32,000 bases of DNA. Origin: Candidatus Saccharimonadota bacterium. Its GTDB lineage: Bacteria > Bacillota_I > Bacilli_A > Mycoplasmatales > Hepatoplasmataceae. This document shows positions 1,593 through 29,254 of the stretch, one piece after another. Location of the stretch: positions 1-32,000 of the forward strand of contig AP027131.1 of the NCBI GenBank assembly GCA_027925225.1, read 5' to 3'. The notes below the pieces were generated by a model, which had not been told where the DNA came from, made no database searches, and was given only the letters and a program-made list of their open reading frames with translations. A program made the translations under genes and the position numbers. The first letter of the stretch is position 1, and each line of letters starts with the position of its first letter.

Positions 1593-2711
1593 ATGAAATT
1601 TAAAATAAAGACAGATGAAATAAAAAAAATATCTAAAAAAATAGTAATTCCTTCTACAAATTTAATAAATAAAATTGAATTTACAGGAATTTTAATAAAT
1701 GTTTTTAAAAATAAAATAACATTTGAAACAAAAGGAGAATTTCTTTCATTAAAAGCTATTTTGAAAAAAGATTTTGAAATATTTAAAGAAGGAAAAGTAT
1801 TAGTAAAATCAAAATTATTTAATGAAATTATTTCTAAAATAACAGATGAATTTGTTGAAATACATACAATGGGTGATAATGTTTTAATTATTAAATCTGA
1901 AAATTATGAATATGAATTAAATTTAATGAATTCAAAAGAATTTGAAGAAGAAAATTTCAATGTTGATTCAAAAGACTTTTTCATTTTAAGTTACCAAAAG
2001 TTTTTTAAATTATTTAAGGGTGTTATTTTTTCGGGAGACATATCTGCACCAAGAAGAATTTTACAAGGTGTTAATTTAGTAATAGAAAACGGGATTATAA
2101 AAACAAGTGCTACAGATAACACAAGAGCAACAATTTTAAAATTAAGTTTTAATGATCAAAATTTAAATTTAAATAAAATAATTCCTATAAAAGTAATTCA
2201 AGAAAATCTAAATATTTTTGAATCATCAAAAGAATTAAATATTTTATTTAGTCATAATAAAATTTTAATTACATCTGAAAATTTTATTTCAAAAGGAAAT
2301 TTAATCGAAGGCGTATTTCCTAATGTTGAAAAAATTTTTCCAATAAAATTTAAAAATTACTTAGATATAAGCAAACAAGAAATTTTAAATTTAATTGATG
2401 GAACAACAGTAATAAATTTTAATAAAAATTCAGATACTAATGTTATAAAATTTCTTTTTGATAAAAATGAAATAATAGTTGAATTTAGAGAACTAGAAAT
2501 TGGTTATTCTAGTTTAAAAACAAAAAAATTTGATTTTCAAGGTGAGAAGAATTTTTTTATTAGTTTTAATCCAAGATTACTTAGAGAAGCAATAACTAAT
2601 TTAGATGCAGAGAAAATAAAAATAGGATTTAATGATTCAAATTCTCCTTTTGTAATATTTGGAAAAGATAGTAATTTTAAAAGTTTAATTCTTCCTTACT
2701 TAATGAGTTAA
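1593..2711 (+). CDS. dnaN: DNA polymerase III beta sliding clamp (372 aa).
   Basis: Position immediately after dnaA, typical clamp length, an ATDNTRA block resembling the ATDghRLA clamp motif, and RBS GAGGTAAAAATG. Confidence 0.85.
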   Translation: MKFKIKTDEIKKISKKIVIPSTNLINKIEFTGILINVFKNKITFETKGEFLSLKAILKKDFEIFKEGKVLVKSKLFNEIISKITDEFVEIHTMGDNVLIIKSENYEYELNLMNSKEFEEENFNVDSKDFFILSYQKFFKLFKGVIFSGDISAPRRILQGVNLVIENGIIKTSATDNTRATILKLSFNDQNLNLNKIIPIKVIQENLNIFESSKELNILFSHNKILITSENFISKGNLIEGVFPNVEKIFPIKFKNYLDISKQEILNLIDGTTVINFNKNSDTNVIKFLFDKNEIIVEFRELEIGYSSLKTKKFDFQGEKNFFISFNPRLLREAITNLDAEKIKIGFNDSNSPFVIFGKDSNFKSLILPYLMS

Positions 2712-2750
2712 AATAAGTTTAATTACCTTATTTAGAAAGAATGATAAAAA

Positions 2751-2972
2751 ATGCCCATTTGAGCTATAGTTCTTGTTTCTGTTATAGGTTTCATAATTTT
2801 TATTTTAATTTTATGATCGCTTGGAAAAGAAACAGTTTTCTTTATTTTTAATAGGATTTTAATTCCTATACTTGTAGTTGCAGCTATAATAGCAGCTGTA
2901 TTTTTTATTGGCGTTGCGCTTTTAGATACTTATTTTGGTACTAATATATGAGATTCTTTAAATTGATTTTAA
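2751..2972 (+). CDS. Small hypothetical membrane protein of 73 aa with two predicted TM helices and four TGA-Trp codons. Invisible in the standard-code track.
   Basis: Manual table-4 translation: MPIWAIVLVSVIGFIIFILILWSLGKETVFFIFNRILIPILVVAAIIAAVFFIGVALLDTYFGTNIWDSLNWF. An in-frame TAA lies 2 codons upstream of the ATG. Confidence 0.55.
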
Positions 2973-3044
2973 TTTTAAAAATAAGAAAAAAATATAAAAT
3001 AATATAACTTTAATAATAATAAAAATTTTAAAAAAGGAAATAAT

Positions 3045-3596
3045 ATGGAGAAAGAAGTAAAGGGTATTTTTGAAAAAACAGAATTAGCACATTATGTTTC
3101 TTTACTTTACGAAAAAGAATATAATGAAAAAATTTCTTCAATAAAACTTCAAAAATCAATTTATTTTTTATTTGCATATTGAGCAGGATTTGGCAAAAAA
3201 TTATCAGAAGAAATAAAAGAAAAAAAAGAAAAAGGAAAAATAAATGAAATTTATCTTTTTAAAAATCCTAGATTTCAGGCAAGACAATTTGGACCTGTAG
3301 AGATTGATATTTTTTCAGAATATAATGAAAATATAAAATTATCAGATATCGAAAACATCAATGAATCGATTGAAGATATTAGTAAAAAATTAAAAAAAAT
3401 AAATTCAGAAGCAAAAAATTTTGTCGATTCTTTTTTAACGAAAAATATTTTTAAAATTAGTGATTTTTCACTTGCGATAAGAAGTCATAAAGATTTATCT
3501 TGAAAAAAAGCATGAAAAACAAAAGAAAATAAAAACAAATTTATATCATCAGAAAAAATTGTTGAAGAATATTTTAAAAAATATTTAAATGATTAA
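3045..3596 (+). CDS. Panacea / DUF4065 (SocA/GepA-like) domain protein of 183 aa. Candidate antitoxin.
   Basis: Table-4 translation gives the family's two hallmark blocks, SSIKLQKSIYFLFAYW and RFQARQFGPVEIDIFSEY (compare KLQKLLYF...F.AW.yGPV). RBS AAAAAGGAAATAATATG. Three TGA-Trp codons. Confidence 0.65.
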
Positions 3597-3602
3597 TTTT
3601 AA

Positions 3603-3839
3603 TTAAATATAGATCTAGATTTTTGCAAAAACGATGATATTGATTTTACAGATATTTTTAATGAAGAAGAAATTGAAGATTTAATTCCTAATTCTTTAGA
3701 AAAATTTTCAAAAATAAATAAAATTTTGATTAAATCATGCGCTAAAAAATCTTTTAAACTTGAAAAATATATGTTTACAAATAAATTAAGCAATTATAAA
3801 GTAAATTATGGAAGAAATAAGTTTCATGAAAAGATATAA
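3603..3839 (+). CDS. Start-less 78-codon ORF in the same frame as the Panacea ORF, separated from it only by TAA-TTT-TAA. Either a decayed C-terminal tail or a small gene with a non-canonical start.
   Basis: Frame-0 translation: LNIDLDFCKNDDIDFTDIFNEEEIEDLIPNSLEKFSKINKILIKSCAKKSFKLEKYMFTNKLSNYKVNYGRNKFHEKI. No ATG, GTG or TTG occurs before the codon-56 ATG. The track's minus-strand ORF 3599-3793 mirrors it. Confidence 0.25.
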   Translation, partial: LNIDLDFCKNDDIDFTDIFNEEEIEDLIPNSLEKFSKINKILIKSCAKKSFKLEKYMFTNKLSNYKVNYGRNKFHEKI

Positions 3840-3958
3840 AAGATTTTTTGAATCCATTAGTCAAAAAAACCGATAAATAAGATTTCTAATTTTTTGTTTT
3901 ATAATAAAAGTATCTTTAATATTATTTTTTAAGATTTTAATTAGTGTTTATTTGTGTT

Positions 3959-5299
3959 ATGGATACAATATTTTCTTTAGTTACAAAACCCATAAATCAA
4001 AATGTTGGGATAATAAGAATTTCAGGCCCTGAAACTTTTTTGCTTACAAAAAAAATCTTCCCTTTTACAAAATTAAATCATTCTACATTAGAAGTACATA
4101 AATTATTTTTAAATGACGAATTTATTGATGATGTAATTCTTTTAATTTTTGCTTCACCCAAATCTTTTACGGGAGAAGATACAATAGAAATTCAGTTTCA
4201 CGGTTCAATGTATATTGCTGATAAAATTCTTTCCTTTTTAGAAAAACAAGATGTTAGACAAGCGAAAGCTGGCGAATTTATGCAACAAGCATTTTTTAAT
4301 AATAAAATAGATTTAATTCAATCGGAAGCAATAAATGAATTAATAACAACTGAAGATAAACTTGTTGCTAAAAAAGCTTCAGAAAATATAAATAATAAAC
4401 AATCAAATGAATTAAAAGATATTTTAATTCATTTAGAAGATATCATTGCTCTTATTCAAGTAAGCATTGATTATCCTGAAAATACAGATTTACCAAAATA
4501 TAGTCATGAAGGAATTGGAAAAAAAGTAAAAAAATTAAAAGAAAATATCGAAAAAATATTAACTAATTCTAATAAATTATTAAATGCATCAAAAGGAGTA
4601 AAAATTGCTTTTATAGGATTTCCTAATGTTGGAAAATCAACCTTACTAAATTCTTTTTTAAAAAAGGAAAGAGCAATTACATCTAATATTGCAGGGACAA
4701 CAAGAGATTTAATTGAATCAATATTTTTTTTAGACGGTCTTAAAATTACACTTATAGATACAGCCGGAATTAGAAAAACAAATAGTATTTTAGAAAAAAA
4801 AAGTATTGAAAAAGCAATTTTAGCGACAAAAGAAGCAGATTTAATTTTTATGCTTTTAGATTCAACAAAAGATATTAAAAAACAAGAAGAAGAATTATTT
4901 AAGAATATTGATACAAATGATTTAAAAATAGTAAAAGTTCTTACAAAGATAGATAAAAATCAATCAAAAAGAAGTGAAAAAGATTATTTAAAAATTTCAG
5001 CACTAAATAATGAAATTTCTGAGATTATAGACTATATAAAATTATTTATTAAAAATGAAGTAATAAACTTCGAAGAAGAAGAAAAAGCAATTTTAATTAC
5101 AAGTTTTCAATTTGCGAATCTTCAAGAAATATTAGATTCATTAATTAAAATAGAAAGCTTTATTTTTGAAAAAGTTGAATTTGATTTAATAAGTTATGAA
5201 ATAGAAAGGGCGATGGATATAATTAAAAAAATTTTAGGAATTAAAAAAGATCCAAACTATTTAAATGATCTTTTTAGTAGATTTTGTATAGGTAAATAA
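3959..5299 (+). CDS. mnmE: tRNA modification GTPase MnmE (TrmE).
   Basis: MDTIFSLVT...GIIRISGPE N-terminus, G-domain motifs GFPNVGKSTLLN, TTRD and DTAGIR, and the invariant C-terminal FCIGK. ATG 3959 is preferred over the upstream GTG 3944. Confidence 0.93.
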   Translation: MDTIFSLVTKPINQNVGIIRISGPETFLLTKKIFPFTKLNHSTLEVHKLFLNDEFIDDVILLIFASPKSFTGEDTIEIQFHGSMYIADKILSFLEKQDVRQAKAGEFMQQAFFNNKIDLIQSEAINELITTEDKLVAKKASENINNKQSNELKDILIHLEDIIALIQVSIDYPENTDLPKYSHEGIGKKVKKLKENIEKILTNSNKLLNASKGVKIAFIGFPNVGKSTLLNSFLKKERAITSNIAGTTRDLIESIFFLDGLKITLIDTAGIRKTNSILEKKSIEKAILATKEADLIFMLLDSTKDIKKQEEELFKNIDTNDLKIVKVLTKIDKNQSKRSEKDYLKISALNNEISEIIDYIKLFIKNEVINFEEEEKAILITSFQFANLQEILDSLIKIESFIFEKVEFDLISYEIERAMDIIKKILGIKKDPNYLNDLFSRFCIGK

Positions 5300-7969: not shown

Positions 7970-8884
7970 ATGGAAAAAGAACAAATTACTGCTACTGAAT
8001 TAGCAAAAATTAATGAAATAAGAAATTTATTTAATCCTTTTATTAAGGATATAAAATTAAATAAATTTAAAATAAAACATCTTCCAAATCATAAAAGTTA
8101 TTCTTTGTTTGGAATAATTTCAGATTATCTTATTAGATATTTATTTTTAAAAAAAATAAAAGAAAATTATTTAGTTGAATCTGATGATTTTATAAATAAA
8201 TTAACAGAAACAACAGAAGAAATAATAGCGTATAAAAGTTTTAATATACTTATAAATTATTCAAGTTATTATGATCCTGATAATATTCAAGAAAAAGAGT
8301 TTTCAAAATTTAAAGAAAGATTAAATGAAGAAATTTCTAATTATCTTTTTAAAAATGAAAAAGATTTATTTGAATTATTTAAAACAATTTATATTTTATC
8401 TATTTCAGATATTATTTTTAGAGTTGGCAAAAAAGAATATATTCTAAATTCTTTAAATAATTTTTTAGAATTTGAGGAATTTTTAAGTAATAAAAATAAT
8501 AAAAAATATGATAATCTTTTTGAAGATTTTAAAAATATTTATGAAAACTTAAATATTTTATTAAAAAATGATTTAAAAATAAAAAATTTTAAACTAAATC
8601 CTTCACTAGGATTAACTGAGTCAAATATATTAATAAAAGCAGATGCCGATCTTATTTTAGAAGATACATTGGTAGAAATAAAAACATCAAAAGATCCAAA
8701 TGTTAAAAATGATTATTTAGAACAGTTATTAATTTATGTGCTTCTGTATTTTAAAAAAACAGGTAAAATAATAAAAGATTTTAAAATAATAAATCCAAGA
8801 GCAACTAATTTAATTACATTTAAAATTAGTTGAGATAAAGATTTATATAACAATTTTAAAAATACTTTAAATAATTTTTTTTAA
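7970..8884 (+). CDS. Hypothetical protein with a RecB/Cas4-like PD-(D/E)xK nuclease core (304 aa).
   Basis: N-terminal ITATEL block and LFGIISDYLIRYL. C-terminal ADADLILEDTLVEIKTSK (D...E-x-K) followed by QLLIYVLLY (QxxxY). One TGA read-through adds 17 codons. Confidence 0.6.
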
Positions 8885-8898
8885 AAAAAGGAATTTTA

Positions 8899-9246
8899 AT
8901 GGAAGCATTATTACAAATATTTTTAAGTTTTTTAGTTTCTATTATTGCAGGAATTATTAGTAATTTTTTATTTTTTTGAATTCAAAAAAATAAAAAAAAA
9001 GATTTTTCTTTAAATAAAAATTTAATAAAATGAAAAAAAGAAATAAAAAACATTAATTCAAAAAATACACTACCAAAATCAATAAAAGAAATAGAAAATA
9101 ATAATTTTAATTTTGAAAAAATAAAACTTTCTAATAATTTATTTTTATTTCAAAAAATTTATAAAAATAAAGAAAAAGATGAATTAAAATATTTTTATTA
9201 TCTTTTATTTATTTTTATTTCAAATAATAAAAATAATGATTTTTAA
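8899..9246 (+). CDS. Small hypothetical membrane-anchored Lys/Asn-rich protein (115 aa).
   Basis: Table-4 ORF: MEALLQIFLSFLVSIIAGIISNFLFFW (N-terminal TM) followed by a K/N-rich tail. RBS AAAAAGGAA. The 3' end overlaps the upstream ATG of pth. Confidence 0.4.
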
Positions 9247-9256
9247 AAAAACAAAA

Positions 9257-9778
9257 ATGAAACTTATAGTAGGACTTGGAAACCCAGGAGAAAGATATAA
9301 AAATTCAAGACATAATTTAGGATTTATGATTATTGATTATTTTTGTAAAGAGAAAGGAATAAAAATTAGTAAAAAGAAATTTAATGGAATATATGAAAGA
9401 ATAAAAGAAAATAATCAAGAATATATTATTTTAAAACCTATGAGTTATATGAATAATTCAGGAGAAGTAGTTTATTTATTTGCAAGTTATTTTGCAATAG
9501 AACCAAAAGACATACTTATAGTTTATGATGATAAGGATATTTTATTTAATAAATATAAAATATCAAATAAAGGATCTTCTGCAGGTCATAATGGAGTAAA
9601 AGATATATTAAAGCATTTGGATAAAGATAATTTTACAAGACTTCGCTGTGGAATTGGTCCGGTAAATAATAAAAGAATAGAAGATTTTGTAATGGATGAT
9701 TTTTTAAAAAAAGAATTAAAAGAATTAGATTTAACAAAATATTTAAATTTAATATATTATTTTTTATACAATGAATAA
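9257..9778 (+). CDS. pth: Peptidyl-tRNA hydrolase.
   Basis: MKLIVGLGNPGERYKNSRHNLGF and GHNGVKDI motifs. An alternative upstream ATG exists at 9236. Confidence 0.92.
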   Translation: MKLIVGLGNPGERYKNSRHNLGFMIIDYFCKEKGIKISKKKFNGIYERIKENNQEYIILKPMSYMNNSGEVVYLFASYFAIEPKDILIVYDDKDILFNKYKISNKGSSAGHNGVKDILKHLDKDNFTRLRCGIGPVNNKRIEDFVMDDFLKKELKELDLTKYLNLIYYFLYNE

Positions 9779-10583
9779 CAATATAAAAAAAATTAAAAGA
9801 TATAAAAATAAAAAAATTCAAAATAAAAAAAAAGACGGATGAGAAGGAATGAAGAAAAGAAGTTTTACAATAAAAAAAACATCTTTTTTGAATATTCCAT
9901 TTGATAAGCAATGAAATATTAAGGAAGATGAGTCTTATTTATACTATTTAAATACATCTTTTTTTATTTTAGAAAAGGATTTTTTAAATTTAGAAAAAAC
10001 AAATTTAAAAGAGTATAAAGGAGATAGTAAATATTGACCAGATTTTTCATTTATTAATAATAAGAATGAGAATCTGTCTTTTGAAATAAAAAATATAACT
10101 CCAGAGATACTTAAAAATTGTAGACACCAGTACTTTGAAAAATTAGGGATAAAAACAGAAAAAGATTTTAAAAAAAAATTTAAATCTATTAACATTTACG
10201 ATAAAGATTTTAAAAAATGTTATTTAAATTCTTATGAAAAACAAAAAAAACAATATGAAAAAGATTATGTAAATAAAAAAATTTCCAAATTATTAAAAAA
10301 AGTGACTAAAAAAATTAATTTAGAAACAGGATATAGCGAAAATAAAGAAAATATTAAAAATTTTAAAAAATACAATAAAAACTATTTAGGTTTTGTTTTT
10401 ACAAATTTTAATTTATTTGATGAAAAATATTTTAAAGAAAAATTAATTTCTATAAATTTAAAATTATTTGAAATTCAAAAAAAATTATTAAATAAATATG
10501 ATGGAATTATTTTATTAGTTTTTAATCTAAAAAAAACAAAAAATTATGAAAATTTAATTTTTATTATTAAAGGAGAAAAGTAA
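9771..10583 (+). CDS. Hypothetical Lys-rich protein (270 aa). Only its last 93 codons appear in the standard-code track.
   Basis: Continuous table-4 frame with three TGA-Trp codons. The ATG at 9771 overlaps the pth stop (ATGAATAA). Alternative ATG at 9849. I recognise no family motif. Confidence 0.5.
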
Positions 10584-22465: not shown

Positions 22466-22476
22466 AAAGGAGAATT

Positions 22477-22740
22477 ATGCCTAGAACAGCAAAAGGAAGA
22501 AAAATCAAAAAAAAACCAATGAGATTTAAAACTTCTAATAAAAAATGTATTTTTACAGAACAAAATATTGAATATATTGATTATAAAGATGTAGAAGTAT
22601 TAAAAAAATTTATATCATATTCAAATGGTAAAATTTTGTCAAGAAGAATTAAAGGTGTATCTGCAAAATATCAAAGAAAATTATCTCTTGCTATTAAAAG
22701 AGCTAGAGAAGTTGGCCTTTTACCATTTGTAGATTCATAG
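22477..22740 (+). CDS. rpsR: 30S ribosomal protein S18.
   Basis: [51 protein letters not shown]. Confidence 0.95.
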
Positions 22741-22741
22741 A

Positions 22742-26040: not shown

Positions 26041-26044
26041 AAAA

Positions 26045-26278
26045 ATGAGTTCAGCATTAATGATTGTTTCTTTCATTATTTCAATTATTTTAATTATTGT
26101 TTTATATTTACAATCAGGGAGAGTAAAAAATGTAGGTTCTTCTATTATTGGAATAAAAGACGTTGAGTTATTCGAAAATATAAAAAGAAGAGGATTTGAA
26201 AAGTATTTGCATATCTTTACTTGGATACTTGTTGTAATTTTTATGGCACTTCCTGTGATAGCACTTATTGTTGCATAA
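26045..26278 (+). CDS. secG: Preprotein translocase subunit SecG.
   Basis: 77 aa with two TM helices and the LYLQSGRVKNVGSS loop typical of SecG. Conserved secG-rnr-smpB order. Confidence 0.75.
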   Translation: MSSALMIVSFIISIILIIVLYLQSGRVKNVGSSIIGIKDVELFENIKRRGFEKYLHIFTWILVVIFMALPVIALIVA

Positions 26279-28910: not shown

Positions 28911-29254
28911 GGGGGTGTAGTGGATTTGACAATTTAGTGATTGTTTTAAATGCAGTGGTCTGATAAACCTTAATATCAAACCTTAAAAATAATCGGAAAC
29001 GATGATCAACCTGTTGATCTAGCATTAATGCAAGAAGAAGTTAATTCTTCTTATGCATTTGCATAAGTAGACAACATTTCTGATAAATATTACTCTTGGT
29101 ATTTATTGGGAAAGTTTTACAAGAGAAAATAGTAGGCATACTATAAATGTAAAAACCTTCCAAATTAAAAAAATTATTTAAAATGGATAAACTGTAGATT
29201 TTTAAAATTGGGTTGCTATTTTGGACTCGGGTTCGATTCCCGACACCTCCACCA
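28911..29254 (+). ncRNA. ssrA: Transfer-messenger RNA (tmRNA, ssrA).
   Basis: 5' GGGGGUG pairs with 3' CACCUCC followed by ACCA. T-arm GGGTTCGATTCCC. Internal tag ORF at 28995-29066. Confidence 0.92.
28995..29066 (+). other. tmRNA tag reading frame encoding (A)GNDDQPVDLALMQEEVNSSYAFA, then stop.
   Basis: The upstream context AAAAAUAAUC-GGA-AAC-GAU-GAU closely parallels E. coli AAAAAUAGUC-GCA-AAC-GAC-GAA. The tag ends in hydrophobic YAFA then TAA, like other Mollicutes tags ending in FAFA. Confidence 0.7.

Follow-up and report, generated by a model that had tools for sequence, protein, structure and literature searches.

The origin region of Candidatus Hepatoplasma vulgare, a woodlouse gut symbiont, raises the question of whether a short stretch of DNA between dnaN and mnmE encodes a toxin-antitoxin pair. 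Under genetic code 4, the gene order in this oriC region is dnaN, a gene for a small membrane protein (TM73), a gene for a 183-residue protein (ORF183), a 362-nt spacer and mnmE. The genome that harbours this islet is 0.66 Mb in size and deletion-prone, and belongs to an obligate arthropod symbiont. In the original prediction, an islet of non-housekeeping open reading frames was placed at positions 2741-3943 of the window (the whole 32,000-nt stretch of DNA that was analysed), with TM73 proposed as a membrane toxin and ORF183 as its Panacea-type antitoxin. PanAT systems are type II toxin-antitoxin systems with Panacea/DUF4065 antitoxins (Kurata et al. 2022, PMC8832971; Ernits et al. 2023, PMC10440598), and membrane-acting PanT toxins are known among them (PMC8832971). 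The features of the locus are as follows.

1593..2711, + strand: dnaN (beta clamp), the upstream housekeeping flank, with Pfam domains DNA_pol3_beta, _2 and _3
2751..2972, + strand: TM73 (HPAVJP_0030), an annotated H. vulgare gene for a two-helix membrane protein of 73 aa
2973..3044, + strand: spacer of 72 nt between TM73 and ORF183, with an AGGA Shine-Dalgarno-like motif before the ORF183 ATG
3045..3596, + strand: ORF183 (HPAVJP_0040), an annotated H. vulgare gene for a stand-alone, divergent Panacea/SocA-family (PanA-like) protein of 183 aa
3597..3958, no strand given: spacer of 362 nt before mnmE
3603..3839, + strand: ORF3, an unannotated open frame of 78 codons without an ATG, GTG or TTG start
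3959..5299, + strand: mnmE (trmE), the downstream housekeeping flank, with Pfam domains TrmE_N, MnmE_helical and MMR_HSR1

Both genes lie where they were predicted and are open under translation table 4 only; under table 11 they are broken, and TGA encodes Trp at four codons in TM73 and three in ORF183. The gap of 72 nt between the TM73 stop and the ORF183 start is likewise correct. TM73 and ORF183 are real genes; 3597-3943, the remainder of the predicted islet, contains no annotated gene and only the start-less 78-codon frame. GC and GC3 of the islet equal those of the host, and neither an Rfam family, an att-like repeat, a tRNA nor a composition anomaly marking recent insertion was found at the islet, nor was an integrase found in the window. 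A promoter scan gave 18 promoter-like sites compared with 13.4+/-3.2 in shuffled sequences, i.e. no enrichment, and the sole terminator-like hairpin returned by a terminator scan sits within the TM73 coding sequence. TM73 begins 39 nt past the dnaN stop with no terminator in between, and is probably co-transcribed with dnaN.

Judged from sequence, paralogue and profile evidence together with a confident AlphaFold model, ORF183 is a genuine but divergent stand-alone member of the Panacea family (PanA-like). The blocks IKLQKSIYFLFAYW and FQARQFGPVEIDIF, on which this label was originally based, are both found in the protein, as are all three hallmark blocks of the family (KLQKxxYF, AWxYGPV and SHxDxxW). 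The label stands on profile and transitive evidence but not on the direct test that had been proposed for it, since Pfam PF13274 scores ORF183 itself at 13.6 bits (E=0.13) against a gathering cut-off of 25.7 bits. The best named match is NCBIfam SocA_antitoxin (E=1.9e-5, 24.4 bits), and phrog_1281 is matched at E=1.9e-10. There are 101 relatives at E<=1e-10, and PF13274 is matched at E<=0.001 by 51 of 55 aligned family members. Against an HMM of 53 relatives, built from sequences of unrelated lineages with Hepatoplasma sequences excluded, ORF183 scores 142 bits (E=7e-40, Z=1e6). The protein falls below the PF13274 threshold because an insertion of ~25 residues splits the domain and a near-invariant Trp is replaced by Arg80; this Trp of the AWxYGPV block, conserved at >=90%, is Arg80 in both Hepatoplasma paralogues. 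A degenerate DNA pattern search for the Arg-variant PanA motif was negative. The second in-genome copy of ORF183 (HPAVJP_5530) is 59% identical (E=4e-51) and passes the PF13274 gathering score with 26.2 bits. The AlphaFold2 model of ORF183 (pLDDT 92.9, pTM 0.90) has helices plus strands at residues 77-80 and 83-86, at the 'FQAR..GPVE' block, and the Panacea fold is described as compact alpha-helices with a beta1-beta2 hairpin (PMC10440598). The modelled helices and strands would be in keeping with the architecture of stand-alone PanAT antitoxins, from which ORF183 differs by its sub-threshold PF13274 score. Sequence and fold searches with ORF183 found no solved Panacea structure in the PDB, and its fold matches in BFVD are unnamed entries.

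The closest relatives of ORF183 are 30-39% identical across all of their roughly 165-180 aa and share with it the motifs KLQKxLYFLFA, YGPV and SDFxLVxxSHxDxxW. In temperate phages, the genes for the nearest PanA-like relatives directly follow a holin and an endolysin and are themselves followed by an overlapping ORF. The pooled set comprised 51 loci: the cultured Brochothrix phage BL3 (gp22 holin, gp23 amidase, gp24, gp25, then integrase), 46 IMG/VR loci and four metagenome or genome contexts. A downstream ORF is present in 48 of the 51, and 47 of these overlap the PanA-like gene by 4-47 nt. A LIDLYHL-type motif occurs in 32 of the 48 downstream partners, which are ~200 aa long; a transmembrane segment is predicted in only four of the 48. 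The usual carriers of the ORF183 subfamily are temperate phages of low-GC Gram-positive bacteria, and the soluble LIDLYHL protein of about 200 aa is presumed to be the toxin of this phage two-gene module. ORF183 resembles the PanA-like member of the module in sequence and motifs but not in setting: the phage gene follows holin and endolysin and overlaps its ~200-aa partner, whereas ORF183 has no such partner and lies between chromosomal housekeeping genes. In the window, the partner was sought as a gene of about 170-220 aa that overlaps the PanA-like gene on its downstream side and carries the motif [LIV][LIV]D[LIVM][YHF]H[LIVM]. A profile of 34 downstream partners found nothing in the six-frame translation of the window (best E 0.6, at unrelated positions), and the LIDLYHL-type motif is absent from every frame of 3590-3960.

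The explanation that we favour, although with a little less than even confidence, is that ORF183 is what has been retained of an old mobile-element module, a PanA-like gene that is now solitary, and that TM73 is functionally unlinked to it. The ancestral layout, as seen in the relatives, would have had the PanA-like gene first in an overlapping two-gene module after a lysis cassette and the LIDLYHL protein second. In Hepatoplasma, the second gene is missing, with only the 362-nt spacer and its start-less open frame remaining; since the LIDLYHL partner is gone and the spacer alone is left, ORF183 would be a solitary antitoxin-type gene. It may have arrived with a mobile element that inserted between dnaN and mnmE long ago and has since ameliorated fully, and ORF183 could still bind another protein as a neutraliser or sensor, as Panacea proteins do. 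TM73, a selectively constrained, lineage-restricted membrane mini-protein, would then have no functional link to its neighbour. What the analysis shows is family membership, how the partner is arranged in relatives, its absence here and selection on TM73; no comparative evidence ties TM73 functionally to ORF183. About half of all Panacea proteins lie outside toxin-antitoxin-like loci, and in a phytoplasma only 3 of 25 lie inside one (PMC8832971). A toxin-less antitoxin would be expected to decay in a deletion-prone genome of this size, which weighs against a solitary ORF183. The gene is intact, its N-terminal 35 codons have a dN/dS of 0.22 and its paralogue is intact as well, and therefore something may be left for it to neutralise.

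Purifying selection acts on TM73 as it does on dnaN, and the gene is real: compared with a second Hepatoplasma lineage, a Logan relative (L001), dN/dS is 0.19 for TM73 and 0.17 for dnaN. Amino acid identity to this lineage is 87% for the dnaN product and 84% for TM73; the spacer between TM73 and ORF183 is only 69% identical and contains indels. The protein is very hydrophobic (GRAVY 1.78) with 5 charged residues only, and AlphaFold2 places helices at residues 3-22, 26-62 and 66-72 (pLDDT 86). Its sole homologue (P0004) is 84% identical, TM73 has been found in Hepatoplasma only, and an ENA contig carries a gene of exactly its sequence. Among annotated proteins of other Hepatoplasmataceae, neither TM73 nor ORF183 has an orthologue outside the H. 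vulgare lineage. TM73 gave no significant family match in Pfam, NCBIfam, PHROGs or PADLOC and no fold match in BFVD, tblastn against 50,697 phage records gave nothing beyond a match at E=4, and no relatives were found in IMG/VR and JGI metagenomes. In being a short, very hydrophobic two-helix hairpin, TM73 recalls small membrane toxins and holins such as GhoT, Hok/TisB-type peptides and class II holins. It differs from them in lacking a charged tail and an antisense-RNA or lysis-gene context, and no resemblance to any of these families was detected by sequence, profile or fold.

A working PanAT pair in toxin-first order, made up of TM73 and ORF183 as originally predicted, is possible but appears unlikely, and a solitary ORF183 is judged slightly more likely. 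In such a pair, TM73 would depolarise or permeabilise the membrane and ORF183 would neutralise it, either by binding before insertion or via the loop or C-terminal tail, and the module would stabilise the locus or serve as an abortive-infection defence. The arrangement is compatible with this. A two-helix mini-protein is indeed encoded upstream on the same strand, and the 72-nt gap is within the 100 nt allowed for a partner gene at PanAT loci (PMC8832971). ORF183 carries its own Shine-Dalgarno-like motif, AGGA, about 7 nt upstream of the ATG as read from the sequence. In two lineages, TM73 and ORF183 have both stayed intact under purifying selection, and both seem limited to the same lineage, as would fit their having been acquired together in a single cassette. 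Validated membrane-depolarising PanTs number three, and small transmembrane peptides are numerous among predicted PanTs; stand-alone Panacea domains can directly neutralise a membrane toxin (PMC10440598), and Panacea antitoxins often swap partners, with 325 of 1268 predicted pairs being toxin-first (PMC8832971). Nor would such a module be out of place in a reduced genome, as had been supposed: existing catalogues of predicted PanAT loci include Ureaplasma, Mycoplasma, Spiroplasma and phytoplasmas, and Hepatoplasmataceae possess restriction-modification systems and also CRISPR-Cas9, from which it follows that they face phages. The locus is only mildly unusual.

Comparison with other loci does not support the toxin role. 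Lack of conservation of the small ORF beside homologues had been named as an outcome that would refute the pair, and a TM73-like ORF was found at 0 of 57 PanA-homologue loci. Although the dnaN-TM73-ORF183 arrangement recurs in the second lineage, the genomes in which TM73 and ORF183 are adjacent number just two or three, all of them very closely related Hepatoplasma and collinear throughout; this adjacency is uninformative on functional linkage because dnaA-dnaN and everything else is equally syntenic there. The closest PanA subfamily has another, downstream partner, and in the H. vulgare proteome the second PanA paralogue is not matched by a paralogue of TM73. All three validated membrane PanT systems are antitoxin-first, the reverse of the order required here. 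In the one system for which an AlphaFold model has been probed by mutations, the contacts made by Panacea lie in a soluble N-terminal region of the toxin and in a short helix that precedes its transmembrane segment (PMC10440598). TM73 is almost wholly membrane-embedded and lacks such a region, as its first helix starts at residue 3 and its charged residues are so few. PanAT loci were also required to have no operon longer than three genes, and the co-oriented genes dnaA-dnaN-TM73-ORF183, jointly conserved in the second lineage, would fail this filter of the FlaGs pipeline (PMC8832971).

A bolder version of the pair, which is more doubtful still, has TM73 as the first member of a new family of two-helix toxins, embedded almost entirely in the membrane, that are neutralised, toxin-first, by a stand-alone Panacea variant with the Trp-to-Arg exchange, the pair being kept by purifying selection beside oriC, for example as an abortive-infection module alongside CRISPR-Cas9. 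As TM73 lacks a soluble handle, Panacea would have to recognise its toxin in a way that has not been described, e.g. by pre-insertion capture or by binding of the short loop or tail.

The setting of the PanA-like gene in its relatives, with holin and endolysin immediately upstream, also allows the islet to be read as the stump of a prophage end, in which a holin and PanA survive while the endolysin and the partner are lost and TM73 descends from a class-II-like holin with two transmembrane segments. An endolysin would be of no use to a wall-less mollicute, and in size and two-helix topology TM73 resembles small holins. We nevertheless consider this descent improbable. Holin families in Pfam and PHROGs give TM73 no match at E<=10, the fold and phage-record searches described above were as unrewarding, and its C-terminal tail is uncharged, unlike those of holins. 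The window has neither att-like repeats nor an integrase, and the composition of the islet is fully host-like.

If ORF183 does have a partner nearby, it could instead be encoded downstream. Only one intergenic gap in the window exceeds the 362-nt one, namely the 401-nt gap behind smpB, and as that one is accounted for by tmRNA, the 362-nt gap is the longest without an explanation; 3597..3958 has no Rfam match and no flanking att-like repeats. ORF3, which shares the frame of ORF183 and begins 6 nt past its stop, could be what is left of a downstream partner or could have arisen by chance. That its product of ~77 aa is the true partner, in canonical antitoxin-first order, seems a poor prospect. 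Translation would begin at a non-ATG codon allowed in code 4 (TTA or ATA), or the frame would be a very recently inactivated toxin gene; it has neither a canonical start nor a Shine-Dalgarno motif, is unannotated and gave no homologue in searches. Its position and order are those of the downstream ORF in 48 of 51 homologue loci and of all validated membrane PanATs. The stop-free run has a chance probability of 0.02-0.06, but runs of 75-90 codons occur in other intergenic regions of the window. On one measure, in-frame codon usage is gene-like (0.445 per codon vs 0.57+/-0.13 for genes); a second measure cannot tell the frame from antisense frames. The segment KSFKLEKYMFTNKL aligns weakly with the N-terminal 'KSIKL...FTNFL' motif of the partner family, yet the LIDLYHL core is absent and the score against the partner profile is a non-significant 5 bits, with an empirical P of 0.06 from shuffles and 0.014 from pieces of real proteins. 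Descent of ORF3 from the phage partner drew no significant score from HMMs of 4 and 34 sequences. Its origin as a decayed PanA duplicate, which had been prompted by a 42-nt direct repeat of 71% identity, was rejected at a score of 0.7 bits.

The weakest candidate, and a very remote one, is a SocAB-like (type VI) system tied to dnaN, with ORF183 as a SocA-type adaptor that delivers a clamp-binding toxin to a protease; it was rejected, as ORF183 scores 24.4 bits against an equivalog cut-off of 190 (NF047745) and has no SocB-like neighbour, TM73 being all-membrane and ORF3 without homologue. SocA_antitoxin is the best named match of ORF183, and the SocA of Caulobacter, a DUF4065 adaptor, belongs to the same domain superfamily. 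Mollicutes generally lack ClpXP, and the ClpXP-dependent mechanism of the Caulobacter system is implausible for them. The islet comes straight after dnaN, and SocB, which binds DnaN, targets the beta clamp according to the account of Aakre 2013 given in PMC12795458; a place beside dnaN is common to every oriC-proximal gene, and its proximity here is coincidental.

The significance of the locus is modest overall because both family and domain, and the presence of the domain in Mollicutes, have already been described. A by-product of the comparison is a well-defined, uncharacterised phage module at the lysis-lysogeny junction, consisting of a PanA-like gene and a LIDLYHL protein. Should TM73 and ORF183 be a working toxin-antitoxin system, they would represent a new mini-toxin family and pose a recognition problem for the 'hyperpromiscuous' Panacea domain, namely how an antitoxin in the cytosol can deal with a toxin that exposes hardly any soluble surface, and a highly reduced symbiont would be seen to have kept an addiction or defence module. 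Should ORF183 instead be solitary, it would be one more of the roughly half of Panacea proteins found outside recognisable toxin-antitoxin loci, and the question would become why a deletion-prone genome retains two intact copies.

Homology to the Panacea family is secure for ORF183, the 183-aa product of HPAVJP_0040. The two hallmark sequence blocks quoted in the original prediction are present in ORF183. The PF13274 search that it had named as a check, taken literally, went against it: ORF183 reached 13.6 bits (E=0.13), short of the gathering score of 25.7. However, the paralogue HPAVJP_5530 is 59% identical to ORF183 (E=4e-51) and, at 26.2 bits, clears the PF13274 threshold. When both copies were combined in a profile and searched against 1.84 billion representatives, 224 matches reached E<=0.001 and 101 of these E<=1e-10; nearly all are full-length proteins of 160-180 aa, and PF13274 is matched by 51 of 55 aligned family members. 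Against an HMM of 53 non-Hepatoplasma members, a non-circular comparison, ORF183 scores 142 bits; other libraries give NCBIfam SocA_antitoxin (E=1.9e-5) and phrog_1281 (E=1.9e-10). AlphaFold models ORF183 confidently (pLDDT 92.9, pTM 0.90). The model combines helices with a beta-hairpin that falls on the FQAR/GPVE block, in agreement with how the Panacea fold has been described (PMC10440598); no solved Panacea structure for superposition was found.

The low PF13274 score of ORF183 is due to an insertion of about 25 residues, which parts the two hallmark blocks, and to a tryptophan-to-arginine change. The tryptophan of the AWxYGPV motif, conserved in at least 90% of the 55 family members, is Arg80 in ORF183 (window 3282-3284) and arginine in the same column of HPAVJP_5530. 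This single substitution (AGA versus TGA/TGG) is older than the duplication that gave the two copies, and may alter partner recognition.

Candidatus Hepatoplasma vulgare is a mollicute of the woodlouse Armadillidium vulgare with a genome of 662 kb (PMC10928387). By exact protein matches, which give locus tags HPAVJP_0020 to HPAVJP_0040, the window is the oriC-proximal part of this genome; it has a G+C content of about 22% and uses TGA for tryptophan. Read under table 4, the layout is:

101-1468, dnaA
1593-2711, dnaN
2751-2972, TM73 (HPAVJP_0030), 73-aa two-helix membrane protein, followed by a 72-nt gap
3045-3596, ORF183, with its own Shine-Dalgarno motif
3597-3958, spacer of 362 nt before mnmE, the longest unexplained intergenic spacer in the window
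3603-3839, + strand, ORF3, a 78-codon open frame directly after ORF183 in the same frame
3959-5299, mnmE
3' of mnmE, in order, tatD, rsmA and prs

A second non-housekeeping islet of two genes lies between prs and pth (7970-9246, + strand). The product of its first gene (304 aa) has no Pfam match, and its C-terminal region resembles, by eye, a PD-(D/E)xK or RecB-Cas4-type nuclease motif string (DADLILEDTLVEIKTSK ... DYLEQLLIYVLLY); 14 nt downstream follows the second gene, whose 115-aa product has a TM helix at its N-terminus. AGGA Shine-Dalgarno motifs precede both genes, and the islet may be a remnant of a defence or mobile element. At 9771-10583 (+ strand), a 270-aa ORF rich in lysine and asparagine, with no Pfam match, overlaps at its start the end of the preceding gene, which we take to be pth. 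The spacers 22466-22741 (276 nt) and 26041-26267 (227 nt) matched no Rfam family and are free of stops over 90 and 75 codons; these runs may be extensions of neighbouring genes or hidden unannotated small genes. The long intergenic gap after smpB is occupied by a tmRNA gene directly 3' of smpB (28911-29254, + strand; Rfam 92.8 bits; ARAGORN tag peptide GNDDQPVDLALMQEEVNSSYAFA).

The nearest homologues of ORF183 share 30-39% identity and occur in a very uniform gene context. Four metagenome or genome look-ups, 46 IMG/VR viral contigs and Brochothrix phage BL3 all show the PanA-like gene after a holin-endolysin cassette and with an overlapping ORF downstream, often near a prophage end or integrase; in BL3, a cultured temperate phage, gp22 (holin) is followed by gp23 (amidase), gp24, gp25 and then the integrase. 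Counted over 51 metagenome, genome and IMG/VR loci, a downstream ORF is present in 48, overlapping the PanA-like gene by 4-47 nt in 47 of these. These partners are mostly 170-220 aa long, all but four of the 48 lack a predicted TM segment, and 32 carry a LIDLYHL-type motif; the family has no match in Pfam or PADLOC. The conserved neighbour in the subfamily of ORF183 is therefore a soluble downstream product of about 200 aa, not a small upstream membrane peptide.

This arrangement is itself a strongly conserved, uncharacterised temperate-phage module (loci L002-L011, L017-L059 and L063). A PanA-like gene (about 165-210 aa) and an overlapping second gene, whose product has about 170-220 aa and an invariant-looking LIDLYHL motif, always lie just past holin-endolysin and ahead of the integrase or prophage end, e.g. 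BL3 gp24-gp25 (L063, 2989-4060). More distant PanA relatives (L060-L062; 23-30% identity), with the PanA-like gene at about 2459-3019, have an overlapping downstream partner (246-249 aa) for which three TM segments are predicted. The wider PanA family does include membrane partners, but on the downstream side.

TM73 and ORF183 are real and constrained genes, since dN/dS is 0.19 for TM73 and 0.22 for ORF183 (over its first 35 comparable codons), with 0.17 for dnaN. Neither can be read through under table 11 because of four and three in-frame TGA codons, respectively. TM73 is extremely hydrophobic (GRAVY 1.78, five charged residues), with AlphaFold helices at 3-22, 26-62 and 66-72 (pLDDT 86). 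A Logan contig of a second Hepatoplasma lineage has the same order of dnaA, dnaN, TM73 and the start of an ORF183 orthologue, where it ends, at identities of 90% (DnaA), 87% (DnaN) and 84% (TM73). An ENA metagenome contig carrying the exact TM73 sequence repeats the dnaN-TM73-ORF183 order.

Our leaning, held at slightly less than even confidence, is that ORF183 is a solitary PanA-like gene and TM73 is unrelated to it. ORF183 would have been retained between core genes from an old, compositionally ameliorated mobile-element module, its canonical downstream partner would be gone, and TM73 would be a lineage-specific membrane protein. A 34-sequence profile found no LIDLYHL partner in any frame of the window. 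A TM73 profile run over 57 PanA-homologue loci, with 3,765 open frames in all, found no relative; phage records, IMG/VR and the JGI metagenomes likewise yielded none, and no TM73 paralogue was found in H. vulgare, although PanA is duplicated there. Roughly one Panacea protein in two is encoded away from toxin-antitoxin-like loci, and in one phytoplasma only 3 of 25 copies are TA-like (PMC8832971). The chief difficulty for the solitary-gene reading is the persistence of two intact copies in a genome of this kind, where an orphan antitoxin should decay.

That TM73 and ORF183 form a genuine toxin-first pair, as originally proposed, appears rather unlikely. The genes lie 72 nt apart on one strand, ORF183 has its own Shine-Dalgarno motif, selection retains both, and they appear lineage-restricted, judging from the lack of orthologues among annotated proteins. 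Membrane-depolarising PanTs and many predicted small-TM PanTs are on record (PMC8832971), and stand-alone Panacea domains can neutralise a membrane toxin directly (PMC10440598). However, conservation of the pair is limited to collinear sister genomes, the nearest subfamily of ORF183 has a different partner, and the antitoxin gene comes first in each of the three validated membrane PanATs. Only one case has been probed structurally, by an AlphaFold model of the interface checked by mutation (PMC10440598); there, Panacea holds a soluble N-terminal segment and short helix before the TM region, and TM73 has no such segment. TM73 also lies 39 nt past dnaN with no terminator between and evolves like a housekeeping gene, and the original PanAT pipeline would reject the locus at its "no longer operon" filter (PMC8832971).

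There is a slim chance that ORF3 is the true, or a recently decayed, partner of ORF183, from which TAA-TTT-TAA separates it. It has no ATG, GTG or TTG start, Shine-Dalgarno motif, annotation or homologue. Against the partner profile it scores at best a non-significant 5 bits, at the N-terminal KSxKL...FTNxL motif (empirical P 0.06 against shuffles, 0.014 against real-protein pieces). A stop-free run of its length has a chance probability of 0.02-0.06, and other window spacers hold runs of 75-90 codons. ORF3 is therefore a lead without proof and not a finding. Equally improbable is a prophage lysis-module stump with a holin-derived TM73, for which no holin similarity was detected in Pfam, PHROGs, phage records or BFVD. 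It is scarcely credible that the locus is tied to the neighbouring dnaN in a SocAB-like way: the SocA score is 24 bits, where the cut-off is 190, and there is no SocB-like gene. A small part of the probability goes to none of these readings.

Publications already cover the Panacea domain and its promiscuity, PanTs that act on membranes, and PanAT loci predicted in reduced Mollicute genomes, the last for Ureaplasma parvum, U. urealyticum, Mycoplasma mycoides, M. feriruminatoris, M. yeatsii, Spiroplasma citri and phytoplasmas; CRISPR-Cas9 and restriction-modification systems are likewise known from Hepatoplasmataceae. These contradict the premise that a toxin-antitoxin or defence gene is surprising here. 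TM73 as a new mini-toxin is possible but unsupported. What is new, if modest, is a divergent Trp-to-Arg PanA variant in Hepatoplasma.
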